DNA from: Clostridia bacterium
GTDB taxonomy: Bacteria > Bacillota > Clostridia > DUPQ01
Reading direction: 5' to 3'
NCBI GenBank assembly: GCA_030590175.1
Contig: JAUUZE010000001.1
Span: forward strand, 1 to 48,441
Length of the DNA stretch: 48,441 nucleotides
Shown here: positions 1,627 through 47,918 of the stretch, one piece after another
Position numbering within the stretch: position 1 is the first letter of the stretch
How the letters are laid out: every line of letters starts with the position of its first letter
Translations under genes and position numbers: made by a program
Notes under the pieces: model-generated
Told to the model about the DNA's origin: nothing
Seen by the model: only the letters and a program-made list of their open reading frames with translations
Databases searched by the model: none

Positions 1627-1647
1627 TTTGATGATTAAATCATCAAA
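1627..1647. repeat. Conserved palindrome copy 1 (TTTGATGAT-TAA-ATCATCAAA)
   Basis: Perfect 9+3+9 palindrome, stem extended by CC/GG. Lies between the stop at 1654 and the start at 1608. Confidence 0.95.
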
Positions 1648-4721: not shown

Positions 4722-4742
4722 TTTGATGATTTAATCATCAAA
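4722..4742. repeat. Conserved palindrome copy 2 (centre TTA)
   Basis: Perfect core. Adjacent to a small GGGAG/CTCCC hairpin at 4743-4758. Confidence 0.95.
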
Positions 4743-5062: not shown

Positions 5063-5083
5063 TATGATGATTAAATCATCAAA
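5063..5083. repeat. Conserved palindrome copy 3 (variant TATGATGAT-TAA-ATCATCAAA), core of an extended 17-bp-stem hairpin at 5055-5091
   Basis: AACTCCCCTATGATGAT TAA ATCATCAAAGGGGAGTT has one A.A mismatch. It starts 9 nt after the capsid gene stop (5100) in the mRNA sense. Confidence 0.95.
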
Positions 5084-7034: not shown

Positions 7035-7055
7035 TTTGATGATTAAATCATCAAA
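7035..7055. repeat. Conserved palindrome copy 4 (centre TAA)
   Basis: Perfect core between the stop at 7068 and the start at 7019. Confidence 0.95.
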
Positions 7056-12455: not shown

Positions 12456-12476
12456 TTTGATGATTAAATCATCAAA
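12456..12476. repeat. Conserved palindrome copy 5 (centre TAA)
   Basis: Perfect core between the stop at 12486 and the start at 12444. Confidence 0.95.
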
Positions 12477-15594: not shown

Positions 15595-15615
15595 TTTGAT
15601 GATTTAATCATCAAA
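15595..15615. repeat. Conserved palindrome copy 6 (centre TTA)
   Basis: Perfect core between the stop at 15621 and the start at 15582. Confidence 0.95.
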
Positions 15616-17285: not shown

Positions 17286-17306
17286 TTTGATGATTTAATC
17301 ATCAAA
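17286..17306. repeat. Conserved palindrome copy 7 (centre TTA)
   Basis: Perfect core 25 nt upstream of the LamG gene start at 17260. Confidence 0.95.
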
Positions 17307-19366: not shown

Positions 19367-19387
19367 TTTGATGATTAAATCATCAAA
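19367..19387. repeat. Conserved palindrome copy 8 (centre TAA)
   Basis: Perfect core about 55 bp upstream of the leftward -35 element. Confidence 0.95.
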
Positions 19388-20337: not shown

Positions 20338-20415
20338 CCACTTTAATGATCCACTTTAATGATCGGGTTTAATGATCCACTTTAATGATCGGGTTTAATG
20401 ATCGCCTTTGATGAT
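20338..20415. repeat. Six tandem 13-bp units (NNNNTTTAATGAT x5, then CGCCTTTGATGAT, which is the left arm of palindrome copy 9)
   Basis: Units start at 20338, 20351, 20364, 20377, 20390 and 20403. The prefix alternates CCAC/CGGG. Confidence 0.9.
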
Positions 20416-20427
20416 TAAATCATCAAA
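20407..20427. repeat. Conserved palindrome copy 9 (centre TAA)
   Basis: Perfect core. First member of a doublet with 37-bp spacing. Confidence 0.95.
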
Positions 20428-20443: not shown

Positions 20444-20464
20444 TTTGATGATTTAATCATCAAA
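20444..20464. repeat. Conserved palindrome copy 10 (centre TTA)
   Basis: Perfect core. Second member of the doublet. Confidence 0.95.
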
Positions 20465-21145: not shown

Positions 21146-21166
21146 TATGATGATTTAATCATCAAA
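21146..21166. repeat. Conserved palindrome copy 11 (variant TATGATGAT-TTA-ATCATCAAA)
   Basis: Stem extended by ATCCGC/GCGGAT (21140-21172). It lies in the predicted leader of the 21084 promoter, 41 nt before the ATG at 21208. Confidence 0.95.
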
Positions 21167-23264: not shown

Positions 23265-23285
23265 TTTGATGATTTAATCATCAAA
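23265..23285. repeat. Conserved palindrome copy 12 (centre TTA)
   Basis: Perfect core between the two pentapeptide paralogs. Confidence 0.95.
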
Positions 23286-24027: not shown

Positions 24028-24048
24028 TTTGATGATTTAATCATCAAA
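24028..24048. repeat. Conserved palindrome copy 13 (centre TTA)
   Basis: Perfect core, 20 nt after the stop at 24007 and 30 nt before the ATG at 24079. Confidence 0.95.
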
Positions 24049-24846: not shown

Positions 24847-24867
24847 TTTGATGATTTAATCATCAAA
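24847..24867. repeat. Conserved palindrome copy 14 (centre TTA)
   Basis: Perfect core with a TCC/GGA stem extension, 25 nt before the ATG at 24893. Confidence 0.95.
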
Positions 24868-27813: not shown

Positions 27814-27834
27814 TTTGATGATTTAATCATCAAA
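27814..27834. repeat. Conserved palindrome copy 15 (centre TTA)
   Basis: Perfect core starting 5 nt after the stop at 27808. Confidence 0.95.
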
Positions 27835-29605: not shown

Positions 29606-29626
29606 TATGATGATTAAATCATCAAA
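29606..29626. repeat. Conserved palindrome copy 16 (variant TATGATGAT-TAA-ATCATCAAA)
   Basis: The core has one A.A mismatch. Its AAGGAG flank lies 12 nt before the ATG at 29642. Confidence 0.95.
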
Positions 29627-30936: not shown

Positions 30937-31155
30937 ATGAGCAGATTATCAATAGACATTTCTGATGAAAAGTCTTTAGCTCTTGATCAAATCTTAGAAC
31001 ATGGAATGAGAGTAGTAGTATTTAATCTGCTCATTGATGATCTTCTTGAAACTTGTAATAAACATGGTGCTGGAAAGGTTATAGGTGCATTGATTGAAAG
31101 AGCTATTACAATTAAAGAAATTAGTAATCTTAATTTTAAACTGGAGAATAAATAA
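30937..31155 (+). CDS. Hypothetical protein (72 aa)
   Basis: ORF track entry with SD AAGGAG. Confidence 0.6.
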   Translation: MSRLSIDISDEKSLALDQILEHGMRVVVFNLLIDDLLETCNKHGAGKVIGALIERAITIKEISNLNFKLENK

Positions 31156-31945: not shown

Positions 31946-31966
31946 TTTGATGATTTAATCATCAAA
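31946..31966. repeat. Conserved palindrome copy 17 (centre TTA), 14-bp stem
   Basis: The core is extended by TTTGC/GCAAA (31941-31971). Confidence 0.95.
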
Positions 31967-34037: not shown

Positions 34038-36506
34038 ATGCCAGTAACATTTGTTAAACCTGAGGGTGATAACGCTACAGCAACCTATATGATAATAGGT
34101 GAACAACCTATTCGTATGGAAATTAAACTTAATAAATCATTCATAGGCCCAGTAGGACGTGTATTTGATGAATGTCTTGCAATAACTGGGATTCAAAGAT
34201 CAGATTGTTATATTACTAATCTAATAAAAGATCTTGATCATCCATTAAAATACTATCTTCAAAATAATAAAAGTCAAATAACATTTTCAAAAGAGGGTCT
34301 TAATTATCTAAACATTCTTAAAGATGAAATTAAAAATTCTAATGCAAAGATTATAATCGTCTTTGGTTGGGCAGCTACAGCAGCACTAACCGGTAGAGTC
34401 GGTATTAAAAAATGGCGTGGTAGTATTATTAAACAATCTGGGAAATTCATTATTCCAACTTATCATCCAGCTACAACATTAAATTCTTATGGTTATCAAG
34501 AAATAAAAGGTGGTCAGTATTTAAATAAACTCTTAATTCAATTTGATATGAAAAAGGGAAAAGATATTCTTGAAAAAGGATTTAAAAAAACTCCTAGAGA
34601 ATTAATAGTCAAACCTACTTTTATTAAAACTATGCAACATTTAAATATATTAAAAGATTTTGGATTAAAAGGATATCTAATCTCCTTTGATATTGAAATA
34701 ACTAATCTTGAAGTTTCTTGTATTTCATTTTCTGATAATCCTAATTTTGCTATATCCATTCCTTTTATTGATGAAAGGGGTAGTTATTACTCTATCCCAC
34801 AAGAGATGGAAATATGGAAAACTATTGAAAGTATTCTCAGTAATCCAAATATAAAAAAGTGTGGTCAAAATCTAATTTTTGATACACATTTTCTTCTTCG
34901 TAAATATGGAATTAAAACTAAGAATATTGAAGATACTATGGTTGCCCAGAGAACAATCATGATCGACTATAAGGTAGGTCTTGATTTTATAACTTCAATA
35001 TGGACTGATCATGAGTATTATAAAGATGAAGGTAAGAAATACTTTGATGGAGGTAATAAAGAAAAGCTCTGGCGTTATAATGCTACTGATTCTATTATAT
35101 GTTCTGAAGCATTTCCTAAACAAAAACAGGAACTTATTAAACAGGATAACCTACCTGCTTATAATCGACAAGTTAAGATTATTGAACCACTTTGTTATAT
35201 GATGGAGCGAGGAATAAAGATTAATGTTAAAGCTATGACGCAGGCTTATAATGATAAGTTACCTGAAATAGAAAAAATGCAATTAGAACTTAATGAATTA
35301 GCTGGTCAACCTCTTAATGCAAGTTCATCTAAACAAATCATGGATTATTTTTATAAAGAAAAAAAACTAAAGCCATATAAAAATAAAGGTAAAGCTACTG
35401 CTGATGAAAAGGCTATGATTCGTATAGCACGTAAAGGATTTCCAGAAGCATTTAAAATCCTTGATATTCGCAGAGCTATTAAAAATCGTTCTACATATCT
35501 TAATCCTGAAAAAATTGATTCTGATGGTCGGCTTCGCTGTAGTTATAATCCTGTTGGTACAAAGTTTAGCCGGATTAGTTCTTCAAAAAATATATTTGGA
35601 ACTGGGAATAATATTCAGAATCAACCTCATGAAATTCTAAAATACTTTCTTGCTGATGATGGCTATATTTGTTATTCTCTTGATCTTGCCCAAGCTGAAA
35701 ACAGAATTGTAGCATATGTAGGTCCTGTTCCACAAATGATAGAAGCATTTGAATCTGGTATTGATACTCATGCATTAACAGCAGCAATGATTTCTGGTGA
35801 AACTATTGAAGAAGTTATTCGACAGGATAAAGCAGGAATAACTTGTCATATTGGTGGAGGTAAAAAATCCTGGCGTTATTTTGGTAAAAAATCTAATCAC
35901 TCTCAAGATTATGATCAGAGCTATAAAAGTTTCTCGCTTGAGCTTGAAATTCCAGAACGTGATGGAAAGTATATTGTTAATAGATTTCATCTGGGTTATC
36001 CAGGTATTCGTCAAAACTATCATACAGGTATTCGTAAACAATTATCAAAAAATAGAACTCTAACTAATCTAATGGGTCGTAAAACTTTATTTCTTGATGA
36101 ATGGGGAGATAAACTATTTAAAGTTGCTTATAGTTGTATTCCACAAGGAACTGTTGGTGATATAATTAATGAAAGAGGATTAATTTATACCTATTATAAC
36201 CAACAAAAGTTTAAACATATTGAACTTCTTAATCAAGTTCATGATTCATTAGTATTTCAAATACCTATTAACATCGGTTTTGATAAACATGCTGAGATGC
36301 TTCTTGATATAATTAAATCTCTTGAGACACCTCTGATTCTCCCGAATAAAAATACTTTTATAATACCTGTAGATATCGAAATGGGATTTAATATGTATAA
36401 GGAAGATTGTCAGAATATATCTTATAAGAATATGCCTAAGAATATTTCTGATCTATCAAAGGCTCTAAATAATAATTATCAAACTCTTTTACAAGAAAGG
36501 AAATAA
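34038..36506 (+). CDS. Family A DNA polymerase with an N-terminal family-4 UDG-like domain and a 3'-5' exonuclease
   Basis: UDG-like region: GEQP...FIGPVGRVFDECL...CYITNLIKD...YHPA. Exo I: FDIE. Pol motif A: DLAQAENR. Motif B: KKSNHSQDY. Motif C: QVHDS. Confidence 0.85.
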   Translation: MPVTFVKPEGDNATATYMIIGEQPIRMEIKLNKSFIGPVGRVFDECLAITGIQRSDCYITNLIKDLDHPLKYYLQNNKSQITFSKEGLNYLNILKDEIKNSNAKIIIVFGWAATAALTGRVGIKKWRGSIIKQSGKFIIPTYHPATTLNSYGYQEIKGGQYLNKLLIQFDMKKGKDILEKGFKKTPRELIVKPTFIKTMQHLNILKDFGLKGYLISFDIEITNLEVSCISFSDNPNFAISIPFIDERGSYYSIPQEMEIWKTIESILSNPNIKKCGQNLIFDTHFLLRKYGIKTKNIEDTMVAQRTIMIDYKVGLDFITSIWTDHEYYKDEGKKYFDGGNKEKLWRYNATDSIICSEAFPKQKQELIKQDNLPAYNRQVKIIEPLCYMMERGIKINVKAMTQAYNDKLPEIEKMQLELNELAGQPLNASSSKQIMDYFYKEKKLKPYKNKGKATADEKAMIRIARKGFPEAFKILDIRRAIKNRSTYLNPEKIDSDGRLRCSYNPVGTKFSRISSSKNIFGTGNNIQNQPHEILKYFLADDGYICYSLDLAQAENRIVAYVGPVPQMIEAFESGIDTHALTAAMISGETIEEVIRQDKAGITCHIGGGKKSWRYFGKKSNHSQDYDQSYKSFSLELEIPERDGKYIVNRFHLGYPGIRQNYHTGIRKQLSKNRTLTNLMGRKTLFLDEWGDKLFKVAYSCIPQGTVGDIINERGLIYTYYNQQKFKHIELLNQVHDSLVFQIPINIGFDKHAEMLLDIIKSLETPLILPNKNTFIIPVDIEMGFNMYKEDCQNISYKNMPKNISDLSKALNNNYQTLLQERK

Positions 36507-36508
36507 AT

Positions 36509-37162
36509 ATGCAAGAATTAAATTTCTATGATATTTGTAAATGTACTTCTAAAATTCCTAAAAAATTAAAAACTCTTATGATAGAAAGTGATTTTCCTAT
36601 ATATATTGCAGGGGGTTTTATTAGATCTATAATTGTTGGAGATACAGTTAATGATATAGATATTTTTGCTGGAAATCATACAGTATCTCAATCATTAGCT
36701 TATCAATTATCTACCAAAACATATAATATTAGTGAAACTAATAATGCTTTTACATTATTAGATTTTAAACCTCCTATTCAACTTATACATAGATGGACAT
36801 TTAAAAATTATATAGAATTAATAGATTCTTTTGATTTTACTATTTGTAAAGCTGTTATTTTTTATGATAAAAAAACTAAAAAATGGAAAGGATTCTGTGA
36901 TGATAATTTTTATTCTGACTTAGCCGCTAAAAGATTAATTTATTGTAATCCTATTAGAGATGAAGAGGTTGGCGGTTCTACATTAAGACTTTTAAAATAT
37001 TATAGAAAAGGTTTTAATGCTCCACTATCTTCAATAGCTACTGTTTTGGGAAGACTTTTATTTAAAGTTCATACAGAAAGAGATAATTCTACCGAAATAG
37101 AATTAGTTATTATTATTAGAGGGTTATTAATAGAAGTAGATCCTAATGCAATAGTTGAATAA
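36509..37162 (+). CDS. Pol-beta superfamily nucleotidyltransferase, CCA-adding / poly(A) polymerase head-domain-like (217 aa)
   Basis: IAGGFIRSIIVGDTVNDIDIF matches the GGxVRDxxxGxxxxDxD head motif of class II tRNA nucleotidyltransferases. Confidence 0.6.
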   Translation: MQELNFYDICKCTSKIPKKLKTLMIESDFPIYIAGGFIRSIIVGDTVNDIDIFAGNHTVSQSLAYQLSTKTYNISETNNAFTLLDFKPPIQLIHRWTFKNYIELIDSFDFTICKAVIFYDKKTKKWKGFCDDNFYSDLAAKRLIYCNPIRDEEVGGSTLRLLKYYRKGFNAPLSSIATVLGRLLFKVHTERDNSTEIELVIIIRGLLIEVDPNAIVE

Positions 37163-37173
37163 AGGAAATAAAT

Positions 37174-38367
37174 ATGCAAGATAGAATCTTAACTGATTGG
37201 CTTGATAATTATCTAGTTTACACTCATAATAGCGAGCCTTCTGAAATGTATCGCTTGTGGTCTGGGATTAGTGTTATATCTGGAGTTCTTCAGCGAAAGT
37301 GTAAACTTGATTGGGGTGAGTTAGTTTTTTATCCTAATCTCTATACTATTCTCGTTGGTCCTCCAGCCGCCCGAAAGGGTACTGCTATGAACCAGGCTTT
37401 TCCGTTTCTTGAAAATCTTAACATTAAAATAGCTGCTGAATCAATAACTCGTGAAGCATTAATTCAGGAACTTAAAAATTCTAATGATAATGATCTTGAT
37501 ATTAAAACTGGTAAAATGCACTTCCATTCATCATTGACTATCTGGGCACAAGAATTAACTGTCTTTCTTGGATATAGTAATCTCCAACTACTTAGTGATC
37601 TAACCGACTGGTATGATTGTCGAAATAAGTGGACATATCGTACTAAGAATATGGGTACTGATGAAATTGTAGGAGTCTATGTAAATCTCTTTGGTGCTAC
37701 TACTCCTGACCTCCTTCGCTCAACAATGCCACTTGATGCTATTGGTGGTGGATTAACATCAAGAATGATATTTGTTTATGAATGGGATAAAGAGAAACTT
37801 GTAGTTTATACCGGACTAACTAATAAAGAAAAACAAATCAAAGAAAACCTTTACATTGATCTCGAACGAATTAGAATGCTTAGTGGTACATTTAGAACTA
37901 CTCCTGATGTTATCGATATCTGGGCACAATGGTATACATATCAGGAAAATAATCCACCTTTTCGTGACTCTAGATTCAATAGTTACTTTCAGCGTCGTGG
38001 AAATCATATTATGAAATTAGCTATGATTTGCAGTGCTTCACGAACATCTAATATGATTATAACAGGAGATGATTTTAATAGAGCAATTAATATTCTGAAT
38101 CGAACAGAGAAAAAAATGTCTCAAACATTCTCTGGTGTTGGTAAGGCATCTCACGCAGATGTACTTACAAAAGTATATACTGATCTCAGATTTGCTGGTA
38201 AAGAAGGTATGAAATATAGTGAGCTTCTTGCTATATATCGTGATGATGCTGATGACTGGATAATGGATAAGATTATTAAAACTTTAAAAGCTATGAAATA
38301 TATTGAAACTATTATCAATGGTGATGATACAACAATAATAGCACTTAAACTAGATGATGGAGACTAA
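37174..38367 (+). CDS. P-loop NTPase, probable replicative helicase / primase-associated protein
   Basis: Walker A LVGPPAARKGT and Walker B-like RMIFVYEWD. It lies in the replication module. Confidence 0.5.
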   Translation: MQDRILTDWLDNYLVYTHNSEPSEMYRLWSGISVISGVLQRKCKLDWGELVFYPNLYTILVGPPAARKGTAMNQAFPFLENLNIKIAAESITREALIQELKNSNDNDLDIKTGKMHFHSSLTIWAQELTVFLGYSNLQLLSDLTDWYDCRNKWTYRTKNMGTDEIVGVYVNLFGATTPDLLRSTMPLDAIGGGLTSRMIFVYEWDKEKLVVYTGLTNKEKQIKENLYIDLERIRMLSGTFRTTPDVIDIWAQWYTYQENNPPFRDSRFNSYFQRRGNHIMKLAMICSASRTSNMIITGDDFNRAINILNRTEKKMSQTFSGVGKASHADVLTKVYTDLRFAGKEGMKYSELLAIYRDDADDWIMDKIIKTLKAMKYIETIINGDDTTIIALKLDDGD

Positions 38368-38378
38368 TTATAATCCCC

Positions 38379-38399
38379 TTTGATGATTAAATCATCAAA
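38379..38399. repeat. Conserved palindrome copy 19 (centre TAA)
   Basis: Perfect core, 11 nt after the stop at 38367 and 28 nt before the ATG at 38428. Confidence 0.95.
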
Positions 38400-38427
38400 G
38401 GAATTTAAATAATAAGGAAAAATAAAT

Positions 38428-38814
38428 ATGACAGATGAAAAAGGACTTACAATAGAAAATCAAGAAGATATAAAATTACTTAGATCAATAGCAACAACAC
38501 TTCATACTCTTCTATGTAATCGAAAACATAATAGTGAAGATCAAACTTGCTGTCAATTCTATTCTAATGAAATATTTTCTGCACATCATGAAGATCTTTG
38601 GGCTGAAGAATCACATAAAGATTGGATTCAAATAACTAAAGTTTTAATGAAACTGAATCATGTACAAGAAAAGGAGATGTTTATAATTCTTGAAAACATA
38701 TCAAAAGTTATTCTAGATATATCTAATCTATTATCTAAATATCCAAAGATGTATAATATAATAAAAGAAGTAATTGAAAGTATATTTACAAACCACCCTT
38801 CAAGCCAGAACTAA
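38428..38814 (+). CDS. Hypothetical protein (128 aa), last gene of the rightward arm
   Basis: ORF track entry with SD AAGGAAAA. Its 3' end overlaps the convergent 1412-aa gene by 29 nt. Confidence 0.6.
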   Translation: MTDEKGLTIENQEDIKLLRSIATTLHTLLCNRKHNSEDQTCCQFYSNEIFSAHHEDLWAEESHKDWIQITKVLMKLNHVQEKEMFIILENISKVILDISNLLSKYPKMYNIIKEVIESIFTNHPSSQN

Positions 38815-41800
38815 TACCACCAATACCACCACTTCGTTTTTTCTTCTTATGACTCTTGGAATCAATTTTTGGCAAACTTACTAATTGTTTAGCCCAAGAG
38901 TCATAATAATCTGTAGGATAACTCTTATTCCAAGCATTAGCTACTTTTGAAGCTGTTCCCCAATATTGAAAATGTTCTTCTGTTCCTTCGAATAATCCTT
39001 TCTGACTTATCACAGAATATAAATCCAGAACTGGAGACATATAAATATCTGGATTTGCAAACTTAAATCCTTTCTCTGTCGGTTTTATAAAATGACTAAT
39101 GAATGGTGGATGTAAGAATAGTTCTAAAACACTAGTATCATTTGCTCTAGCGATACTTTCAGCTATTCCAACATACATAAGATATCTCATAAATCTTGTT
39201 CTATAACTAGTTCCAAAAACATCTTTCTCACCTTTAAGAGCCTTCTTAATTATATCATATTTATATTCAAGAAGTTTTATTGGAGTCATTGTAAACATAG
39301 TAAATGCTCTAGCTCCAGTACCTTTCATCCACAATGCCTGATCACTTTGACCTCTAAAATTTGAATCAAGAATATTTTTCCAGATAGCTTTTTGAACTTT
39401 TTCCATTGGCATCTTACCAACACCTGACATAATCCCTGCCATAACATTAATACCATTTTCAAATGCTTCGATTGCAACAGTTGGCTGAGCTAAAAGAGCT
39501 TTAACTCTTTGTGATCCTTCTCTAAATCCTGGAATTTGATCTAATTCCGCCACAATATTTTTCTGTTTTATAAAAGCACTAATAACATCTAACTCATGTC
39601 CTTTTGGCTCACGTCCAAAAGTTTTTTTAAATGCTTGACCAGCTGCTTTGAAAGCTAATTTACTAGCTTGAATATTAGCTTTTGTACTATATATTGCAAA
39701 TGTCCCTGGAAGCTTTAATAAATGCTTAAGTCCAACACTAAGTGAAGCACCTATAAGTCTAAGATATTCAAAATCTACAAGTTTATCAACACCATGTTCC
39801 ATTAACCTAGATACTCCAGTCTCATGTTTTCGATATAGATTTTTATCTATCCACTCATTGTATAAACTACGTAAACCAGTATCTGCTCCAGCCATAGTTT
39901 GAGCAAACCTATTAAAGAATGGTTGATGAGCTAGCTTCTTCTCAACCATAGGAATATATACATCTAGAATTTGACTTGCATCTGGTATCCATATTCTACC
40001 GTTTGGCATCTGTCTTTGAAAATCCATAATTTCAGGAGCTTTAAGTTTCTTAAAAAACCCAACATCTTTAGGATTATCAAGAACTGAATTCCAGAGTCTA
40101 GTCATATATGTTTCTTTTTTATCAATAGGTATACCAACATCTTGAAGATGTTCTTTCTTTGTTAAAAAATATTCTTTTAATCTTCTTGATAAAAACATTT
40201 CATCAGCATTAAGTTTAACTTCTGGATGCTGTTTAAGTTGTTCAAGTTTCTTAAGAGCATTCTGATATCGTTTTGATTTCATAAGAGTTTCAGATCTATT
40301 CGACTCATGAACTCCTTGAATATATTCATTTAGACTTTTAATTCTTTGTTGTGGTAACTGCCCACCAGCATGTAGAGTAGCCTTAACAACTGGCTCATTA
40401 TATAGCTTAACTATATTAATATCATAATCTTCTGGTAATCCTTTTAGTCTTTTTCCAATATTTTTACTTTGTAATTTTAATTTCTCTAACCTCTCTTCAT
40501 ATTTTTTCTTTTTATCTTTTGGTGACTTTTTAATTTGTCTCTTAATAACATCTATCTGTCTACCGATACTATTTCTCTTATTAATATCAGGTCTATATTT
40601 TTCATAAACAGGATCAAGAACATCACTAATTCTTTTCAATCTATCTTTTTTATCTTTATCAAATCTCTTAAATAAATCCTGTTTCCATTTTGAATAATTA
40701 CTAATATTTGTATGAAAAGCAATATTAGATTGTTGCATATCTATTACAGGATTATCTATTAAATCAAAAGCTTTTTCAAATTGATAATGAGGACTTGCAA
40801 GATCTTTCTTAATATCTTTTTTAATCTTAGGAACTCTCTCAACATTAATTCCTGATTTCATATGTTGTGGAAGTTCATAAGAACCTTTTTTATAACCTTT
40901 AACTATCACACCCTGATCTAATAAGTATTGATGAAATTCTGATAATTTTTCCTTAGGAGTATTATCTATAATTCTCTTATCTATCTCCATTTGTACAGCA
41001 GTTTTCTTTGCTTGATCAAGTTTACTTTTTGCATCAGAAAAATCTTTAGCATCAAACTCTTTAAGTTCCTTTTGCATCTGCCTATTAATAAACTCATCAA
41101 CAATTAGTGCTTCTTTTTCTGAATAACCAGCATCTAACAAATACCTAAGAACTTCTATCCCTTCTTCTTTAGCTGCCTTAATAATATTTCTAAGTTGCTG
41201 AACTCGCTCTGGTGGGAGTGGACCAGTTGATATTGATCCTCGCTCATCTTTAAGAATCTCTTTAACACTATCCATAAGTTCTGCTAATAATTCTGAATCT
41301 CTTCCAACACCTTTAGAAAAACTATCATCAGCCATATCAAAGATATCACTCATAGTTGTTTCAACTATATCTTCTTTTGTTTCAGCTGCTTCAAGTTTTT
41401 CTTTAAGTGGTCTCTTAGCATCAAGTAAAATATCAGCTCTATCACCGAGCTGTTTTTCTACTTTAATATGATCTATACCTGTCAATATTCTATCTACATA
41501 TTCATTAACTTGTACAAATCTAGGATCATTAGTTGGAGCTTCACTTATTAAACTCTTTAATTCTTTTTCAACATTTAGAATAATATCTGTATCACCTGGC
41601 TTCTCTATCCACTCTCTCATTACTTCACCAAGAGCATCAATCTCTTGCATTAACTCATCTGGTTCTTTAACATACTTATATGTTCTATCTTTCATTGAAG
41701 GAATTTTATCTTCATCAGTTAATTCTTTCAGCAACTTTCTTCTTTTTTCTGTCATTTTATCTTTAGGAATAATATCCCCTTTGATGATTAAATCATCAAA

Positions 41801-43024
41801 GGGTTTTTCACCACTCTTAATAGCCTCACCTTCCAATTTCTCTAAGTTATCTTGAAATACTGTTTCTTCTTCAACTATTGATTCAGCAGGCTTTTTAATA
41901 TCAGCTTCAGCTTTATCATATTCTACCATTTTATCTTTTATAGCTTTTCTAATAAATTCAGGACTTGCATCTTCTGGAAAAGTCATAGTTGTTTCTCTAC
42001 CTTTTTCCATAATTGTATACAGTTGTCGTGCAGGAAGTTTACCAAATCCCTGTTGTCCACCAGTATCTTCAAATCTAATATCAACGCCCAGATCTTTAGC
42101 CTCTTTCAAAACAACATCAGGTTTATAATTTGGATCTGGTTCATTAAATGTTATTTTAGTTTCTCCACTTTCAGCAACTTGTTCATCAAGTTTATTAAGT
42201 TTCTCACGTTCAATCTGCATTTCTCGTTTAGCTTCTTCAGGAACCTCTTCAACTACTCTTTCATGAACTTCTTTGGTGTCACGAACTACACTTTCCAACT
42301 CAGTTTTAATTCCTTCAACCTCTGCTTTAACATCTGGGTCTTTAATTTCTTTAAGATCAATTCCTTTAATATCATCAGCTAAGTCAGTAAATTCTTCTTG
42401 TGTAAGTTTTTTAGTTTTAATTCTACGTTTCATACCTTCAATTTTACTCTTAACTTTTTTAATTCCTCCTGCACCAACTTCATGATAACCTTTAAAAGCT
42501 AATAATTCAATAAACTTAGCCATACCAAAAGCAGCTACATCAATAACTTCATCAGGAATAAATGTATCAAGCTCTTTAAATTGTGCTAGATTTTTTTCTA
42601 TCTGTTCAGATGGAACCATTACCTCAATTCCATGACTAACTTTCTTAACAACACTTTCAGGTATTTCTGGCTGTTGACCTATATCAAAAAATTCCTTTGA
42701 AAATTTAGTTATCATTCCAGGCTGGAGAGTAACTTTACTAGCAGCTTCAACAGCCTGGTCTCTAGCTTCACGTATAGTCATTTTTGGATCTACTATTCCA
42801 CGACCTATAGCCATTGTCTCAGCACCAAGCCCAGGAAGAAACATTGTAGCACCATGAGTTAATGCTGCTGTTGCATCAATAGTTTCTATAGTACTAGCTC
42901 CAATATCCTTCCCGAATTGTTTAATAGAACTAAACATTCCTGGAGATTTTTCAACTGGTTTACGATCATCAGTTATCCTATTATCACCAATAGCATCTTG
43001 ATTACGATCATCAACTATATCCAT
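38786..43024 (-). CDS. Giant virion-internal / ejection or tape-measure-like protein (1412 aa)
   Basis: It is the longest ORF. It has a K/E-rich coiled-coil-like middle region and a Gly-rich C-terminal tail (SGGIGGISSGLKGGL), and it is the last gene of the virion arm. No enzymatic motif was recognised. Confidence 0.55.
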   Translation of the reverse strand: MDIVDDRNQDAIGDNRITDDRKPVEKSPGMFSSIKQFGKDIGASTIETIDATAALTHGATMFLPGLGAETMAIGRGIVDPKMTIREARDQAVEAASKVTLQPGMITKFSKEFFDIGQQPEIPESVVKKVSHGIEVMVPSEQIEKNLAQFKELDTFIPDEVIDVAAFGMAKFIELLAFKGYHEVGAGGIKKVKSKIEGMKRRIKTKKLTQEEFTDLADDIKGIDLKEIKDPDVKAEVEGIKTELESVVRDTKEVHERVVEEVPEEAKREMQIEREKLNKLDEQVAESGETKITFNEPDPNYKPDVVLKEAKDLGVDIRFEDTGGQQGFGKLPARQLYTIMEKGRETTMTFPEDASPEFIRKAIKDKMVEYDKAEADIKKPAESIVEEETVFQDNLEKLEGEAIKSGEKPFDDLIIKGDIIPKDKMTEKRRKLLKELTDEDKIPSMKDRTYKYVKEPDELMQEIDALGEVMREWIEKPGDTDIILNVEKELKSLISEAPTNDPRFVQVNEYVDRILTGIDHIKVEKQLGDRADILLDAKRPLKEKLEAAETKEDIVETTMSDIFDMADDSFSKGVGRDSELLAELMDSVKEILKDERGSISTGPLPPERVQQLRNIIKAAKEEGIEVLRYLLDAGYSEKEALIVDEFINRQMQKELKEFDAKDFSDAKSKLDQAKKTAVQMEIDKRIIDNTPKEKLSEFHQYLLDQGVIVKGYKKGSYELPQHMKSGINVERVPKIKKDIKKDLASPHYQFEKAFDLIDNPVIDMQQSNIAFHTNISNYSKWKQDLFKRFDKDKKDRLKRISDVLDPVYEKYRPDINKRNSIGRQIDVIKRQIKKSPKDKKKKYEERLEKLKLQSKNIGKRLKGLPEDYDINIVKLYNEPVVKATLHAGGQLPQQRIKSLNEYIQGVHESNRSETLMKSKRYQNALKKLEQLKQHPEVKLNADEMFLSRRLKEYFLTKKEHLQDVGIPIDKKETYMTRLWNSVLDNPKDVGFFKKLKAPEIMDFQRQMPNGRIWIPDASQILDVYIPMVEKKLAHQPFFNRFAQTMAGADTGLRSLYNEWIDKNLYRKHETGVSRLMEHGVDKLVDFEYLRLIGASLSVGLKHLLKLPGTFAIYSTKANIQASKLAFKAAGQAFKKTFGREPKGHELDVISAFIKQKNIVAELDQIPGFREGSQRVKALLAQPTVAIEAFENGINVMAGIMSGVGKMPMEKVQKAIWKNILDSNFRGQSDQALWMKGTGARAFTMFTMTPIKLLEYKYDIIKKALKGEKDVFGTSYRTRFMRYLMYVGIAESIARANDTSVLELFLHPPFISHFIKPTEKGFKFANPDIYMSPVLDLYSVISQKGLFEGTEEHFQYWGTASKVANAWNKSYPTDYYDSWAKQLVSLPKIDSKSHKKKKRSGGIGGISSGLKGGL
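41780..41800. repeat. Conserved palindrome copy 20 (centre TAA), located in frame inside the 1412-aa CDS
   Basis: Perfect core with CCC/GGG flanks. It encodes PFDDLIIKG within ...GEKPFDDLIIKGDIIP... Confidence 0.95.
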
Positions 43025-43026
43025 AA

Positions 43027-43848
43027 TTATTCTCCAAAATTAATTATACGTTCACTATCATCTAATTCTAAAAAGCCATCTATCATTTGATTAGCTTTCT
43101 TCTCACTCACATTATATTTATTAACTAGAACATCTAAAATTCTAGATGTTTTAATATTCTCACCAACATCATCAACAATAAAAGGAATCCTCATAGGTTT
43201 TGTATCAAACCCTTCATACGTAATTGGAAATTCAAGAACTGTTATATCTTTTCCAAGTTCATTAGCATAATTTTTAACACTATTTAAATTATCTATTGTT
43301 GGATATATATGATTATTATCTTCATCAAGAGTTATTTCATCTAACTCTTTCTGAATTTGATAAACAGTTTTAGCTGTACCTTTATCTGATTTACCTAAAT
43401 CTTTTGTTGTTGAAGATCTAACTGGCTCACCTATTTTTTTACCGCCTTTAACAAAATAAGTATTAAAAACTCCAGGTGAGTCTTCAAAAACTTCTGTTGT
43501 AAAACCTTGAGATTCTTTATATTCAATTGTAGCATCATCAACCTCTTGCTTTGCCTGATAAGCAAGTCGTCTAGTTTCAGCATTTTTAGTTGCAGCATCA
43601 GCATTACTTTGACTAATTAAAGTTTTCTTCGTTTCAAAAACATTTTTAATCTTGTCCATCTCTAACTCATGATCATATTTTTCTCTCTTAAGACCCATAG
43701 TTTCTTTATGTCTCTGTTGAACACTTTGAGCAGTTCTAGCACTCTCAGCCATTTGTATAAGATCATTAATAGTTTTATTTTCAATCTGTTGTTGTTTCTG
43801 TCTTAAACCCATAATAGCATTTTGTTCTTGAGGAGATAGCCCTAACAA
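43027..43848 (-). CDS. Hypothetical virion protein (273 aa); start uncertain (TTG at 43848, no SD)
   Basis: ORF track entry. The next in-frame ATG is at 43815. Confidence 0.55.
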   Translation of the reverse strand: MLGLSPQEQNAIMGLRQKQQQIENKTINDLIQMAESARTAQSVQQRHKETMGLKREKYDHELEMDKIKNVFETKKTLISQSNADAATKNAETRRLAYQAKQEVDDATIEYKESQGFTTEVFEDSPGVFNTYFVKGGKKIGEPVRSSTTKDLGKSDKGTAKTVYQIQKELDEITLDEDNNHIYPTIDNLNSVKNYANELGKDITVLEFPITYEGFDTKPMRIPFIVDDVGENIKTSRILDVLVNKYNVSEKKANQMIDGFLELDDSERIINFGE

Positions 43849-43889
43849 ACTAATACCAGTATTACTATCAGTATCAGCCGCATCTTTTG

Positions 43890-44423
43890 CTAGGGCGCCA
43901 GAAAATTTGGCGATAGAGTTTCAAAAATCTTTTTTGAATCTAATTCTGAAGTACCAGTTGCACCAGTTGCACCAACATCCTGTTCACCTTCAATAGTTGA
44001 ATCATCTGTTATATCAGCATCTATTTGAACATTACTTCCACCACCCTCTTTCTTTCCAGTTTGAATAACTTTATTTAATCCGGTTAATCCAGGAGCAGTA
44101 AAACTATCTTCCGCAGGAGTACGTCCACCAAGAATATCTGTAAATGCTTTCATTAGTCTTTCTTGGCTTTGGTTTTTTTGCCCAGCTATATCTTTTAAAG
44201 CTTTTTCACTTAGACTAGATTTAGCTAATTGAGTTCCAAGTCCAGCAAATATATTACCTTCATCACGACCAGCTAATCCACTACCAAGATAATCAAGAAT
44301 GATACTTGTAAGTTCTGGTTTTTCTTTCATAAAACCACCAACCTTACCAAATATTCCTCCTGCATCACCTTGCCCAGTTTGAACTTCATCACCTAAATTT
44401 TTTGCTACATCCATTGGATTCAT
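43890..44423 (-). CDS. Gly-rich hypothetical virion protein (177 aa)
   Basis: ORF track entry with SD GGAGA. It has Gly-rich amphipathic segments. Confidence 0.6.
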   Translation of the reverse strand: MNPMDVAKNLGDEVQTGQGDAGGIFGKVGGFMKEKPELTSIILDYLGSGLAGRDEGNIFAGLGTQLAKSSLSEKALKDIAGQKNQSQERLMKAFTDILGGRTPAEDSFTAPGLTGLNKVIQTGKKEGGGSNVQIDADITDDSTIEGEQDVGATGATGTSELDSKKIFETLSPNFLAP

Positions 44424-44434
44424 TTTAAATCTCC

Positions 44435-44455
44435 TTTGATGATTAAATCATCATA
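44435..44455. repeat. Conserved palindrome copy 21 (variant TTTGATGAT-TAA-ATCATCATA)
   Basis: One mismatch in the core. First member of a doublet with 38-bp spacing. Confidence 0.9.
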
Positions 44456-44472
44456 GCATTTATATTATCCCC

Positions 44473-44493
44473 TTTGATGATTAAATCATCAAA
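44473..44493. repeat. Conserved palindrome copy 22 (centre TAA)
   Basis: Perfect core with a CCC/GGG extension. Second member of the doublet. Confidence 0.95.
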
Positions 44494-44503
44494 GGGAATT
44501 TAA

Positions 44504-45343
44504 TTATAAGAATGATAATGCTCCACCTATTACACCACCTACAATAGCTCCAACCCAATTACCTACTCCAAAACCAGTAGCTGCTCCACTTAAAGCTCCA
44601 CCAACAAATTTTTCTAGATCACTAGCACTACCACCTTTTTTCCCTGAAGTACTTGATGAGCCAGCTCCGGTTAAAAGTCCTAAAACCGATCTTTCAAATT
44701 CATATAAATCTAAAGGCCAAAGTTTATCTTGGATATTCATATCAAGATTAGTATTAATAACATCCAACTTCAAATTATAATATAATTTAACTATATTACT
44801 ATACTGACCAACAACATTCTTATTCCAACTTAAATGTGTTGACCATCTATTAATTGCTATCGGTAATAATTTATATTTAACTTCAGTTTTATATCTATCA
44901 ATAGTCTTATCTTTAGATTCATTTATTAAATTTATTCCGTCTATATAAATACTATTCATAATAGAATTAATATTATCAACTCCAGAATTAAATCTAACAA
45001 TAGAATTATCAACTTCAGTATTAATTAAACTAACTTTCTTTTCAACTAAACTTGTTAGAGGAATACCATTAGTTGTATCATAAAGTATCTGATCAAATAA
45101 TACACTAATATCAAGCCCAGCTAAAAACTTACCATAGATATCAAATAATGATGGAAAATTTCCTATCACACTTCCTACATCAAAAAACAGATCATCAATT
45201 TCTATATCGGTTCTTCCATAAGCTGGAGATTTAGTTGCAACTCCTTCAAGTACCTCAGCTTGTGTATAATCTAAAAGAGTCTGATGTTTACTTTCTAAGT
45301 AATCTGGATATCTAGTTGTATTAACATTAGTATATGAACCCAT
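44504..45343 (-). CDS. Virion protein with a C-terminal glycine-zipper hydrophobic tail (paralog B, 279 aa)
   Basis: Alignable by eye with 45356..46222 (RYPDYLE / RYPAYLE; LWPL..YE.ERS..G.LTGAGSSST). The tail reads GGALSGAATGFGVGNWVGAIVGGVIGGALSFL. Confidence 0.65.
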   Translation of the reverse strand: MGSYTNVNTTRYPDYLESKHQTLLDYTQAEVLEGVATKSPAYGRTDIEIDDLFFDVGSVIGNFPSLFDIYGKFLAGLDISVLFDQILYDTTNGIPLTSLVEKKVSLINTEVDNSIVRFNSGVDNINSIMNSIYIDGINLINESKDKTIDRYKTEVKYKLLPIAINRWSTHLSWNKNVVGQYSNIVKLYYNLKLDVINTNLDMNIQDKLWPLDLYEFERSVLGLLTGAGSSSTSGKKGGSASDLEKFVGGALSGAATGFGVGNWVGAIVGGVIGGALSFL

Positions 45344-45355
45344 AATTATTCCTTA

Positions 45356-46222
45356 TTAAAAGAATGATGTTGCAGCTCCTATAACTCCACCTGCTGCTGT
45401 TATCCAAGAATCACCAGTCATTGCTCCAGCAGCTGCCCCACTAGCAGCACCGCCAAGTGCACTCTTTATATTACTTCCACCTTCATCTTGCTTTGATTTA
45501 GTGCTCGATGAACCAGCTCCAGTTAAAACTCCTATTGCTGATCTCTCATATTCAAAAACATTCAATGGCCAGAGCTTATCTTTAAATAATTTTTCATAAT
45601 TAAACTTTTCAACTCCAAGTTTAATATTATAATAATTCTGTATTACTTCTCCATAACAAATAATAATATCCTTTTGCCAAGTTAATCTATCTGAATAAAC
45701 TTTCATCATATCAGGAAACATATTATATCTAAGTTCTGATTCAAACTTTGAAATCTTAAAAATCTTCTTCTGTTCAATAATAGATTTACCAATTACAAAA
45801 GAACTACTTTCAATAGAATCTATATCACGCATACTAATAGCAAACTTAGCCATAATTCTATCATCTATATCATCATCCAACATATCAGATTTTGATGTAA
45901 CTATATCATCGATAATAGATGTATTAACAATACTATCAAAAACATCATCAAAGATTTCCTCAATATCTAATCCAGCCATATGCTTTCCAAACATATCATA
46001 CAATGCTGGAAAACTAGATATAGTATATCCGGCTGTAAGAAATGCATCATCTATATTTATTGCACTAAAATCAGCATATGGAGAATCTTCTTTAATAACT
46101 GTAACTTGATTATGAACATTATTCAAAAAACTTCTATGAGCAGTTTCTAAATATGCAGGATATCTAACAGTTGTAGTAGTCTGTTTATTTTTATCTTCTG
46201 AAGAACCTCCACCAGAGCCCAT
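45356..46222 (-). CDS. Virion protein with a C-terminal glycine-zipper hydrophobic tail (paralog A, 288 aa)
   Basis: Tandem paralog of 44504..45343. The tail reads GGAASGAAAGAMTGDSWITAAGGVIGAATSFF. Confidence 0.65.
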   Translation of the reverse strand: MGSGGGSSEDKNKQTTTTVRYPAYLETAHRSFLNNVHNQVTVIKEDSPYADFSAINIDDAFLTAGYTISSFPALYDMFGKHMAGLDIEEIFDDVFDSIVNTSIIDDIVTSKSDMLDDDIDDRIMAKFAISMRDIDSIESSSFVIGKSIIEQKKIFKISKFESELRYNMFPDMMKVYSDRLTWQKDIIICYGEVIQNYYNIKLGVEKFNYEKLFKDKLWPLNVFEYERSAIGVLTGAGSSSTKSKQDEGGSNIKSALGGAASGAAAGAMTGDSWITAAGGVIGAATSFF

Positions 46223-46232
46223 AATAATATCC

Positions 46233-46703
46233 TTATAATTTAATTATATAATTTCTAAATGTTTCTGCTATATTAAAATTACTTGCCATATCCCAAATTT
46301 TAGAATTAGCTGAATCAAATTCAAATGCCTTACAATTATTATTCTTTGCAAATGCTAAAGATGTTTCAACAAGTTTTTTATAAACATCTATATTTGATTT
46401 TTCAAAAGCATATAGATATTCTCCATAAAGAATTAAATCACCAGTAATTTTATTAGATAAAATTCTATTAATCATAAGAGCTTTTATTGCTCTGGTTTCT
46501 TTATCTAACATAAAATAACATTGAGCTTTACCACTAAGTAATTCATATAATGTCTGGATATTATAATAGTGAATATCTTTCTCATCTTTTATATGAGTAT
46601 TAGCCATTCCATACTTAATAATTTCCCAATAAGTATAAGTACCTTGTAAATCTCTTGTTGAAATCTGTTGTGGTGTTAGTCTAATTATCATTAATATCTC
46701 CAT
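46233..46703 (-). CDS. Hypothetical protein (156 aa; more likely start is the ATG at 46691, preceded by GGAG)
   Basis: ORF track entry. It overlaps the fibre gene stop (46681-46683). Confidence 0.6.
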   Translation of the reverse strand: MEILMIIRLTPQQISTRDLQGTYTYWEIIKYGMANTHIKDEKDIHYYNIQTLYELLSGKAQCYFMLDKETRAIKALMINRILSNKITGDLILYGEYLYAFEKSNIDVYKKLVETSLAFAKNNNCKAFEFDSANSKIWDMASNFNIAETFRNYIIKL

Positions 46704-46959: not shown

Positions 46960-46965
46960 GGAAGC

Positions 46966-47730: not shown

Positions 47731-47918
47731 TGGGGTATACCTCCTTACTGCAGGTAGATAGGCTGAAGGTTAAGTCTGTTAGGGAAAAGCGCATTTTGAG
47801 CAATGTTTGGTGCAAAAAAAAGCTATTTCCAGTAAAAGTCGGCAATCGTACTCTTTAGACTCCTTCAGCCTTCAGTCTAAACAGCTTCAGCCTGACTACA
47901 TGATAGTAGTCACGTTTT

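Follow-up and report, generated by a model that had tools for sequence, protein, structure and literature searches.

The 27-nt palindrome at 41777-41803, which lies in frame within a 1412-aa ORF (38786..43024, - strand), is one member of a genome-wide set of 22 sites in the window, i.e., the whole 48,441-nt stretch of DNA analysed. Comparison with a close relative (L002) shows that this copy is constrained at the nucleotide level and that it changed in step with the relative's whole family of sites. We hold with middling confidence that the sites are a family conserved in position, which co-evolves with a reader of two-fold symmetry, most likely a phage DNA-binding regulator of the operator or roadblock type.

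On the + strand the intragenic copy reads CCCTTTGATGATTAAATCATCAAAGGG; as the earlier note described, it is translated in frame as PFDDLIIKG (aa 408-416, codons CCC TTT GAT GAT TTA ATC ATC AAA GGG, - strand). Its core (41780-41800), set between CCC/GGG clamps, is a perfect match to the family consensus. In the window TTTGATGATT-W-AATCATCAAA occurs exactly 22 times, in 18 cases perfectly and in four with a single mismatch, against 0.03 +/- 0.17 sites expected by chance in shuffled sequence, and the full dyad consensus extends to 21 bp, C-TTTGATGATT-W-AATCATCAAA-G. No site in the window shows 2-3 mismatches to the TTTGATGATTWAATCATCAAA core, all 22 having at most one, and thus no decayed copies are seen at this level. 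The copy had also been assigned to a subfamily sharing both flanks; the left flank, ATCCCC, does recur at 33989, 38379 and 44473, but the right one, GGGTTTT, only at 33989.

[quoted passage not shown] Sites are found at 1627..1647 (between an RCC1-repeat gene and ORF 1174-1608), 4722..4742, 5063..5083 (3' of the major capsid gene, with a mismatch at position 2), 7035..7055 (with the SD sequence GGAGG directly after it on the coding strand), 12456..12476, 15595..15615, 17286..17306 and 19367..19387, the last within the leader of the late genes, a leftward block. The non-coding control region holds a tandem pair (20407..20427 and, 37 nt after the first, 20444..20464). The half-site-like TTTAATGATC is repeated there five times in direct orientation, every 13 nt (20342..20403, + strand), and these repeats keep phase with the left arm of site 20407. 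The site at 21146..21166 stands ahead of the first rightward gene, and others lie at 23265..23285, 24028..24048, 24847..24867, 27814..27834, 29606..29626 (between the exonuclease and Sak4-like genes), 31946..31966 (upstream of a ParB_N-methyltransferase gene) and 38379..38399 (just after the primase gene). A second pair occupies the ejection-gene cluster (44435..44455, with a mismatch at position 20, and 44473..44493, 38 nt after it); tandem pairs are spaced by 34-38 nt.

For some 13 of the 22 sites in the window, the relative has a site at the corresponding gene junction, in two genomes whose proteins are only 40-86% identical. These include sites 1627 (relrc 27606), 5063 (relrc 30459), 7035 (relrc 32309), 12456 (relrc 37833), 29606 (relrc 6228), 31946 (relrc 12399, and also fragments L024 and L025/L026) and 44435 (relrc 23726 and L020 17870). 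The junction before PolA, at site 33989, is occupied in the relative (13755), L020 (6925) and L012 (17800), and that after the primase in the relative, L020, L012 and the Desulfofustis phage OP947158.1.

The giant ORF has a single alignable homologue (51% identity), from the syntenic 45-kb phage contig of the relative. The clean 9-residue indel that the earlier note had looked to as the mark of an insertion is absent from this alignment; instead, the relative bears a palindrome at the same codons (L002 11273-11299), encoding PFGDKITKG. The orthologous stretches read CCCTTTGATGATTTAATCATCAAAGGG in the window and CCCTTTGGTGATAAAATCACCAAAGGG in the relative, and both are flanked by the residues K...GD..(I/V)PK. 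All of the ~25 relative copies are G5/C17 and all 22 window copies A5/T17; the D-to-G and I-to-T replacements in the peptide are the same symmetric A-to-G and T-to-C switch as seen family-wide. Six of nine residues are conserved, and third-codon positions within the nine palindrome codons are all identical (9/9, against 55% elsewhere in the gene; P ~0.005), in a comparison that covers two genomes, the window and the relative. Conservation of the giant ORF is limited to its C-terminal ~470 aa, and the surroundings of the palindrome form a variable segment: aa 195-560 are indel-rich and only 16-52% identical to the relative per 50-column block, yet the palindrome has the joint-highest nucleotide identity of any 27-nt stretch within it. 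In-frame placement is by itself weak evidence, since in either orientation two of the three reading frames of the element carry stop codons and only an open-frame copy could survive in a coding sequence.

The relative contains a second intragenic copy 360 nt upstream, encoding PFGDKITIG, which has ~55 nt of similar flanks and adjoins a 16-aa indel relative to the window. It aligns with 42140..42166 of the window (- strand, aa 287-295, GETKITFNE, GGAGAAACTAAAATAACATTTAATGAA), possibly a decayed copy judging from a weak resemblance. Loop bases differ between the intragenic and intergenic copies of the relative, while stems are fixed. If the intragenic copies were disregarded, the gaps between sites would reach 6056 nt (window) and 6189 nt (relative), each the largest of its genome; this argument from spacing is a descriptive one.

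Further symmetric variants occur, at some of the same junctions, in three more distant relatives, each genome having a variant of its own. Both-sided changes affect 9 of 12 dyad pairs, and the covariation score of the dyad, 0.50, was reached in 0 of 500 shuffles (shuffled value 0.17); dyad symmetry is thus maintained via symmetric changes. Some positions depart from complementarity in a systematic manner, namely 2/20 in the relative (19 of 23 copies scored) and in L020, and 5/17 in L012 (5/5 copies). Counted over the window flanks, positions -2/+2 do not covary.

All sites lie in transcribed DNA and are predicted to fold as stable hairpins (-12 to -22 kcal/mol, z-scores -3.8 to -6.6). At intercistronic sites the distance is 2-48 nt from the preceding stop codon and 9-73 nt to the next start, the latter being only 9-15 nt in several late genes. 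The coding strand directly after the element reads GG(G/A), and the G-run flank doubles as SD in about a third of cases. Read on the coding strand, 15 of 20 window copies have a central T, and the asymmetric form TATG...CAAA is oriented with transcription 14:3 in the relative. Host-type promoters were detected at 25654-25682 (scoring 12 of 12), 21084-21112 (sigma-70-like, TTGACA-17-TATTGT) and 19663. Sites sit 3' of the sigma-70-like promoters at 21084 (~33 nt in the case of site 21146) and near 19600, not inside them, and no -35/-10 elements were found at a fixed distance from the sites. The phage itself is roughly 47 kb, podovirus-like and appears lytic.

In the explanation that we favour, the sites, which occupy the short spacers between cistrons as well as the control region of the phage, would be read as a whole set by a lineage-specific factor with two-fold symmetry. 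The most likely candidate is a DNA-binding protein of the phage, dimeric or tetrameric, which, once on its sites, may modulate or block transcription by the host RNA polymerase, following an operator/roadblock logic like that of the mycobacteriophage stoperators. The intragenic copy may be needed to bound the inter-site spacing: the giant gene offers no spacer across ~6 kb, and one site would consequently be kept inside coding sequence, in a variable and indel-rich segment likely to tolerate it. PFDDLIIKG would then be a passenger of the DNA motif. The giant ORF product is presumed, from its synteny with head and ejection-like genes, to be an internal virion or ejection protein; Pfam, PHROG, PDB and phage-database searches gave no match for it.

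A search for the reader revealed no HTH, repressor, integrase or RNA polymerase family in the ORFs scanned. One lead, rather than a finding, is a 72-aa ORF (30937..31155, + strand) whose N-terminus, RLSIDISDEK followed by a helix, is ribbon-helix-helix-like and which is conserved in all relatives examined. Its family yields one weak ParD match, from one member only, and its structure model has a pLDDT of 65. Two observations count against this candidate: its beta-strand residues are identical in the window and the relative although the sites differ, and it also occurs in L022, where 18 kb holds no such sites.

The main rival, which we consider rather unlikely, is that the sites act as RNA hairpins with 10-13-bp stems, read by a phage or host RNA-binding protein or nuclease for transcript processing, stabilisation, attenuation or termination. 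The copy in the giant gene would then be a pause, processing or attenuation point or, on the opposite strand, a terminator that stops antisense transcription reading through from the convergent replication operon. The presence of every copy in transcribed DNA, within stop-to-start spacers, agrees with this, and a stable hairpin at every transcribed site counts against a pure DNA reading. The 14:3 orientation bias likewise means that an RNA-level or transcription-coupled function also fits, as does the bias towards a central T. Intragenic copies differ only in the loop (GATTTAATC vs GATAAAATC) with stems intact, the window copy forms a textbook intrinsic terminator in antisense (12-bp stem, then TTTTT), and the AAA codon before CCC (antisense TTT) is kept in 3/3 intragenic copies. 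A plain hairpin, however, has no need for 21 invariant bases, and the non-complementarity at 2/20 and 5/17, the flanks that do not covary and the in-phase half-site repeats and tandem pairs of the non-coding control region all favour reading of half-sites on DNA. Furthermore, most copies lack a sense-strand U-tract, the stems fall short of what classical RNase III requires, and no RNA-binding protein or nuclease candidate was found.

Other explanations fare worse. T7-like phage polymerases use a conserved, phage-specific promoter motif of ~23 nt that precedes many genes and varies by lineage. The site pattern resembles such promoters generally, the GG(G/A) after the element would suit them, and a giant, presumably virion-borne protein is encoded; the element could be a promoter complete in itself, used by a polymerase that the phage encodes or modifies (e.g., the N4-type hairpin promoters), the intragenic copy serving the distal part of the giant gene. 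We deem this improbable given that no RNA polymerase or sigma family was seen in any ORF scanned, that the giant protein matches nothing in Pfam, PHROGs or PDB, and that separate consensus host-type promoters exist with the elements 3' of them. The 9-15 nt left before several late start codons, the symmetry of the element and its occurrence in both orientations also speak against it, and no internal start is conserved after the intragenic copy (M424 of the window is N in the relative). A mobile or copy-pasted palindrome (of the RPE, MITE or REP type) that had landed in frame in the giant gene was, in its RPE-like form, the reading preferred by the earlier note. Such an element would account for many near-identical copies, and the similar flanks beside the 16-aa indel of the relative are compatible with local copy-paste; the origin of the shared copy is untraceable, distant homologues not being alignable there. 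It is nevertheless very unlikely: the homologue has its palindrome at the same codons with no indel, copies occupy orthologous junctions between diverged genomes, the whole family switched sequence in concert, decayed copies with 2-3 core mismatches are lacking in the window, and only 1/22 copies lies deep in a CDS. The element is also 21-27 nt long against ~150 bp for Rickettsia palindromic elements (RPEs; PMC10969869), the ORFs scanned include no transposase-like family, and neither 185,579 bacterial genomes nor metagenome contigs gave multi-copy matches. Shared position, concerted switch and absence from bacterial genomes thus rule against an RPE-like jumping element, while the fallback of the same note, an internal regulatory, pausing or processing site, agrees with nucleotide-level selection. 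Little probability also attaches to the intragenic copy being a functionless relic homogenised by gene conversion. The phage does encode a Sak4-like annealing protein and an exonuclease, a recombination module through which conversion could proceed; conversion can yield concerted evolution of repeats, and the similar flanks of the relative's two intragenic copies hint at patch copying. Yet deletions or inversions would be expected between scattered 21-27-nt repeats in both orientations, and synteny is intact; the possible old copy at 42140-42166 was not homogenised, and the loops of the relative differ between intragenic and intergenic copies over fixed stems. Finally, the idea that PFDDLIIKG is a protein motif matching the palindrome by coincidence is effectively refuted. 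The six residues conserved in one close homologue would fit it, but the chance expectation is ~0.03 per window, the residue changes follow the DNA motif and all nine third-codon positions are identical. Moreover, the peptide is found in 0/149 of the more distant, palindrome-free homologues, which share only the C-terminal domain; it is therefore not a structural motif. The earlier note had named the presence of the peptide in such homologues as refuting its insertion reading, and that outcome was not observed.

Several known systems share part of this pattern. The operators of the P22 ribbon-helix-helix proteins Arc and Mnt are 21-bp dyads with a single central base pair, suiting two dimers. 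The same dyad geometry is found here, and the phage group conserves a 72-aa ORF whose N-terminus is RHH-like; for Arc and Mnt the operators number one or two, against 22 sites here, and the RHH fold of the 72-aa ORF is only putative. In phage T7, RNase III sites likewise form hairpins between the cistrons of long transcripts, at some ten or more places, but these hairpins are longer, imperfect and interrupted by an internal loop; they lack the 21 invariant bases, and the enzyme that reads them comes from the host. RPEs are also palindromic repeats translatable in frame inside a protein gene (PMC10969869); besides their greater length, they occur in many unrelated genes as insertions relative to orthologues, whereas positions are conserved here. 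The SAS and extended SAS of Cluster K mycobacteriophages (PMC3203893) are conserved repeats just 5' of many gene starts, with inverted-repeat parts and a subcluster-specific consensus, kept at the same gene families as here. Unlike the present sites, which lie 9-73 nt from the start codon in both genome halves with one intragenic, SAS are 13-bp asymmetric sequences that contain the SD, 3-7 bp from the start codon of non-structural genes only. The stoperators of Cluster A mycobacteriophages such as L5 and Bxb1 number 20-30 oriented sites per genome, and their motif co-varies with the repressor (PMC6550527). Each is an asymmetric 13-bp site to which the monomeric immunity repressor of a temperate phage binds, while those described here are 21-bp dyads known from sequence, in a phage for which no repressor or integrase was found and in which, as it appears lytic, a stoperator-type immunity repressor would have no obvious role. 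In both cases, 20-30 near-identical short sites are spread genome-wide, mostly in short intergenic spacers (PMC6550527, PMC9283540), largely oriented with transcription and with some sites 3' of promoters rather than within them, and in both the motif differs between related phages, tracking their divergence.

The plus-strand sequence at 41777-41803, CCCTTTGATGATTAAATCATCAAAGGG, is read on the coding strand as CCC TTT GAT GAT TTA ATC ATC AAA GGG and translated as PFDDLIIKG, residues 408-416 of the 1412-aa product of a giant ORF (38786-43024, minus strand); ORF and sequence together confirm the earlier description of a palindrome lying in frame in this gene. The window of 48,441 nt contains 22 copies of the palindrome's 21-nt core, TTTGATGATT-W-AATCATCAAA, against 0.03 in shuffled sequence. 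Eighteen copies are perfect and four carry one mismatch each, at position 2 or 20; a scan of the whole window detected no copies with two or three mismatches. The flanking bases never vary, being C at -1 and G at +1, and information content around these dyad sites is limited to about 25-27 nt. Of the 22, 20 fall between genes, one overlaps the final 13 nt of the ThyX ORF, and the copy at 41780 is the only one deep within a gene. Since each orientation of the element is open in just one of three frames, a surviving intragenic copy must sit in that frame, and its being in frame is by itself unremarkable.

The window is a phage genome of 32% G+C coding for an SU10-type capsid protein, a portal, a large terminase and an endolysin, along with a family A DNA polymerase that carries a UDG-like domain at its N-terminus, a DUF3987 primase, a ligase, an exonuclease, a Sak4-like protein, ThyX and a ParB_N-methyltransferase. 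Its replication genes point rightward (21208-38814), towards a leftward block ending in the giant gene. The polymerase-UDG-superfamily fusion (34038-36506; N-terminal UDG domain) was present in every related phage examined, and the fusion of ParB_N to an N6/N4 DNA methyltransferase (32002-33342) wherever domain annotation existed in relatives. The nearest database phage is Desulfofustis phage LS06-2018-MD01, whose polymerase and capsid protein are respectively 42% and 44% identical.

The earlier note read the intragenic copy chiefly as a mobile or copy-pasted element inserted in frame, to be checked by looking for a clean 9-residue indel among homologues. Only one protein, P0002 (1411 aa, 51% identical), encoded by the syntenic 45,424-nt contig IMGVR_UViG_3300005265_000060 (hereafter the relative), could be aligned across the palindrome. 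The alignment of KPFDDLIIKGD with its KPFGDKITKGD is gap-free at residues 408-416, and the DNA of the relative at this site, CCCTTTGGTGATAAAATCACCAAAGGG, is its own version of the palindrome at the same codons. About 25 copies of that version, T(A/T)TGGTGATT-W-AATCACCA(A/T)A, are found in its genome. The two families differ by a switch from A at position 5 and T at position 17 in the window to G and C in the relative, and the D-to-G (GAT to GGT) and I-to-T (ATC to ACC) substitutions are exactly this symmetric 5/17 switch. All nine third-codon positions of the copy are identical, compared with 55% gene-wide (P about 0.005), and the 27-nt stretch has the joint-highest nucleotide identity of all windows in residues 195-560, an indel-rich region merely 16-52% identical per 50-column block. 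It is the protein that follows the DNA motif and not the reverse; two residues of the giant protein would differ between the relatives only because a genome-wide control motif changed specificity. The peptide pattern is absent from all of the other 149 homologues listed, and is therefore not a structural motif of the giant-protein family.

Neither the giant protein nor four homologues matched Pfam, PHROGs or PDB in sequence searches, and the gene had no match among 50,697 phage records at the DNA or protein level; its neighbouring genes suggest a virion protein. A word-indexed search yielded one homologue. An exhaustive profile search yielded 235, which are alike only in the C-terminal ~470 residues, their N-terminal halves being unrelated. 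This family of 235 metagenomic members, also devoid of Pfam, PHROG or PDB matches, includes proteins of up to ~3000 aa, and its C-terminal ~470-aa domain bears the motif ANDTS(V/I)LE(L/M)FLHPPF and a basic Gly/Arg tail (38786-43024; P0003-P0151). A local profile of this domain did not match the syntenic giant proteins of the related phage contig L020 and the Desulfofustis phage, and the giant gene is therefore not orthologous throughout the group. Conservation of the protein is lowest around the intragenic copy, and a passenger of nine residues is probably tolerated there. Ignoring intragenic copies, the longest site-free stretch of each genome comprises the giant gene and its tightly packed neighbours (6056 nt for the window and 6189 nt for the relative); once these copies are counted, the largest gaps are 5421 and 4583 nt. 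As a description, these figures would fit a need for sites at bounded intervals that keeps one inside the giant gene.

Downstream, the 3' end of the giant gene overlaps by 29 nt (38786-38814) the 3' end of the convergent ORF 38428-38814. That ORF codes for a protein (~105-160 aa) which evolves rapidly and has conserved Cys/His positions; a homologue directly follows the primase gene in every related phage examined, with a dyad site at or beside the junction in those that have dyad sites. Additional terminator-like hairpins with T-runs lie antisense to the giant gene at 39601-39621 and 41434-41452 (plus strand), and 12 terminator-like sites were counted in 36000-48441, against 4.5 +/- 1.6 in shuffles. 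One possible cause is selection to curb antisense read-through by transcripts of the convergent operon.

For about 13 of the 22 copies in the window, the relative has a site at the corresponding gene junction. Shared positions include sites that follow the capsid and primase genes, that precede the ParB-methyltransferase and polymerase genes, and that separate the exonuclease gene from Sak4, as well as sites in the ejection-gene cluster, the control region and the giant gene. Syntenic phages at a greater distance carry their own variants of the 21-nt design: TATGGTAATT-W-AATTACCAAA in L020 (4 copies in 21 kb), TATG(G/T)TAATT-W-AATTA(A/C)CATA in contig L012 (5 copies in 23 kb) and TATGTCCCAA-N-TTGGGACATA in the Desulfofustis phage (L023; about 9 copies). 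L020 and L012 also have sites at the 'after primase' and 'before polymerase' junctions, and the Desulfofustis phage has one directly after its primase; some junction sites are conserved across the phage group. Among 39 distinct copies, nine of the 12 dyad pairs show changes on both sides, with a covariation score of 0.50 versus 0.17 in shuffles that was reached by none of 500 shuffles; the test reflects few independent events, as only about five lineages are represented. A stepwise path is visible among the variants, from TATG..CATA through TATG..CAAA to TTTG..CAAA. Judging from these comparisons, the dyad sites form a family that stays in place and changes in concert, a pattern expected for cis-sites co-evolving with a trans-acting reader and unexpected for a recently mobile repeat.

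Comparison with mobile repeats leads to the same view. Rickettsia palindromic elements (RPEs) are about 150 bp long (about 100-150 bp) and insert, with a conserved peptide, into many unrelated genes (PMC10969869); the element described here spans 21-27 nt, and one copy of 22 is deep in a coding sequence while another clips a gene end. An RPE or in-frame MITE is further opposed by the gap-free alignment to P0002 with a palindrome at the same codons, more distant homologues not aligning there, and a MITE- or REP-type repeat by the orthologous positions, the lack of copies with two or three mismatches and merely chance-level bacterial matches. A pattern scan of 185,579 bacterial species returned six single matches, about the chance level, and no genome with more than one. 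A metagenome scan gave 55 single matches, none bearing the giant gene, the only related phages being two short fragments (L035 and L038), and scans of viral contigs with window-type and general family patterns uncovered no other multi-copy genome. The RPE-like insertion envisaged earlier is unsupported: the copy shows no indel, the family occupies orthologous positions and its sequence switched in concert. The relative does carry another copy inside its giant gene, which encodes PFGDKITIG (aa 305-313) and lies 360 nt upstream of the shared one. Their flanks are similar over about 55 nt, and the additional copy adjoins a 16-aa indel relative to the window, which favours local copying; no internal protein repeat was found to account for the pair. 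The window counterpart would be at most a decayed remnant, at 42140-42166. Either point mutation or the insertion of a patch in the common ancestor could explain the shared copy, whose origin is untraceable further back since more distant proteins do not align in that region.

What, then, might the sites do? They are not ordinary promoters, since they lie downstream of separate host-type promoters, in transcribed DNA, at 21084-21112 (TTGACA-17-TATTGT) and near 19600 (TTGACA-16-TATGAT, 19663-19690), and no -35/-10 or other motif stands at a fixed distance from them. A perfect consensus sigma-70 promoter, TTGACA-17-TATAAT, occupies a 200-nt gap at 25654-25682; about 12 nt past it, 25694-25714 bears a weak 16/21 resemblance to the dyad (ATCGATGATTTAATAATAAAT), and a lone exact half-site is found at 25745-25754 on the minus strand. 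Promoters for a phage RNA polymerase of the T7 or N4 hairpin type are unlikely: none of the ORFs scanned matched such a polymerase or a sigma factor, and the giant protein lacks any Pfam, PHROG or PDB match. A novel phage polymerase may still be encoded. Intrinsic termination on the sense strand is likewise disfavoured, as tails read GGG(A/T/G)... and a U-run is absent at most copies, TTTTT occurring only antisense of the intragenic copy. No slippery heptamer was seen before the intragenic hairpin and no internal start codon after it is conserved between window and relative, making frameshifting or internal translation initiation unlikely.

The main rival is an RNA hairpin read by a specific factor. 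A role in RNA, or one coupled to transcription, is favoured by stable RNA folding of all copies (-12 to -22 kcal/mol), by the good intrinsic terminator formed by the antisense side of the intragenic copy (a 12-bp stem, then TTTTT), by a coding-strand bias towards T as the centre base (15:5 over 20 window copies), and by the asymmetric form TATG...CAAA, which tracks gene direction 14:3 in the relative; L012 shows no orientation bias. Recognition of duplex DNA through two half-sites is nevertheless favoured over a simple hairpin because of invariant bases, non-complementary pairs, half-site repeats and tandem pairs. Each of the 21 bases is close to invariant, though the dyad centre is free to vary. 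In the relative, 19 of the 23 copies scored have non-complementary bases at positions 2/20, a mismatch also present in L020, and every L012 copy is non-complementary at positions 5/17; by our count flank positions -2/+2 hold C or G on either side with no covariation. In a control region that is non-coding and rich in repeats, five direct TTTAATGATC repeats recur every 13 nt and lead in phase up to the full site at 20407; tandem dyad pairs are spaced by 34-38 nt. We therefore propose, with moderate confidence, an operator or roadblock model in which a symmetric phage protein would bind the dyad sites and modulate the passage of host RNA polymerase, as at stoperators (PMC6550527). A bolder scheme, which we consider improbable, would make the dyad the address label of a new system of gene-expression punctuation in phages, its hairpin or duplex read by a lineage-specific protein or RNA at every cistron boundary, the giant-gene copy splitting or attenuating expression into a two-piece or dose-controlled product and the protein being forced to follow a nucleic-acid code. 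The fallback offered by the earlier note, an internal regulatory, pausing or processing site, stands in its regulatory form as far as sequence analysis reaches.

No HTH, sigma, repressor or RNA polymerase family was detected among about 55 ORFs scanned. The 72-aa ORF 30937-31155 is a weak candidate for the reader, its N-terminus (RLSIDISDEK, then a helix) resembling a ribbon-helix-helix (RHH) protein. It is conserved in all relatives, and the dyad geometry (21 bp with a central base pair) fits an Arc/Mnt-like RHH operator. An AlphaFold model of the candidate had a pLDDT of 65, too uncertain for a fold search, and one member gave a single, marginal ParD match. Two further points count against it: its strand residues are identical in window and relative, and a homologue is encoded by L022 (IMGVR_UViG_3300035698_010165), a related phage with the same replication module (primase 59% identical) in which 18 kb of sequence revealed no dyad-site family. 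As for other readers, a 'transcriptional regulator' annotated in OP947158.1 was discarded, having neither Pfam support nor a homologue in the window. ORF 19880-20287 is dissimilar to the same-position gene of the Desulfofustis phage.

The control region itself (19400-21200) is non-coding, visibly more G+C-rich and full of short tandem repeats (GGATCAGGATTCGAGCC x2, CTGCTCGCGCCCCAC x2, AACCGTTTT x4, GGTTATGAT x4, and CCGGTTAAT-like and (A/G)ATCAAAT(T/C) units); it contains the five TTTAATGATC iterons and two dyad sites, and looks like an origin, a regulatory region or genome ends. An exact 123-nt direct repeat (1-123 and 46837-46959) makes the genome look circular or permuted (unit length 46,836 nt), as does a minus-strand ORF beginning near 1160, which leaves the window at its start and would resume at 46836. 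The remaining 1.48 kb (46960-48441; ORFs 46966-47730 and 47919-48392) has no similarity to 124-1605 and could be an alternative tail-fibre-like gene cassette or an assembly chimera. Two adjacent pentapeptide-repeat proteins with C-terminal DUF5758 (22465-23250 and 23309-24007), absent from the relative, have a dyad site between their genes (23265) and another after the second (24028); they are possible host-takeover or DNA-mimic proteins. In the relative, a GACCAAA heptamer run (17558-17600, reverse complement) marks the convergent junction, after a tandem dyad pair behind the primase gene.

The giant-gene copy shows with unusual clarity a coding sequence that follows a nucleic-acid motif, and provides a clean natural example of such a signal overriding protein sequence. 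It also serves as a warning for annotation: short in-frame palindromes should not be called mobile before orthologues are checked. The family as a whole offers material for studying the co-evolution of one reader with more than 20 sites.

The literature searched held no described palindrome family in this phage group, an uncultured podovirus-like assemblage to which the dyad family belongs and whose nearest record is the Desulfofustis phage. By analogy, the family, of general formula T.TG......W......CA.A (21 bp), would be a kind of genome-wide phage regulatory repeat, like stoperators and SAS/ESAS elements (PMC6550527, PMC3203893). In SAS/ESAS, the motif contains the Shine-Dalgarno sequence and lies 3-7 bp from the start codon, whereas here the sites fill short spacers, 2-48 nt after a stop codon and 9-73 nt ahead of the next start, in a register that is not fixed, and the G-run flank doubles as Shine-Dalgarno in about one third of cases. 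Stoperators are asymmetric 13-bp sites bound by the immunity repressor of a temperate phage, unlike the present 21-bp dyad in a genome whose scanned ORFs gave no match to a repressor or integrase family. Yet both comprise at least 20 near-identical sites genome-wide (22 in the window, about 25 in the relative), and in both the motif co-varies from one related phage to another, here as at least five lineage-specific variants.
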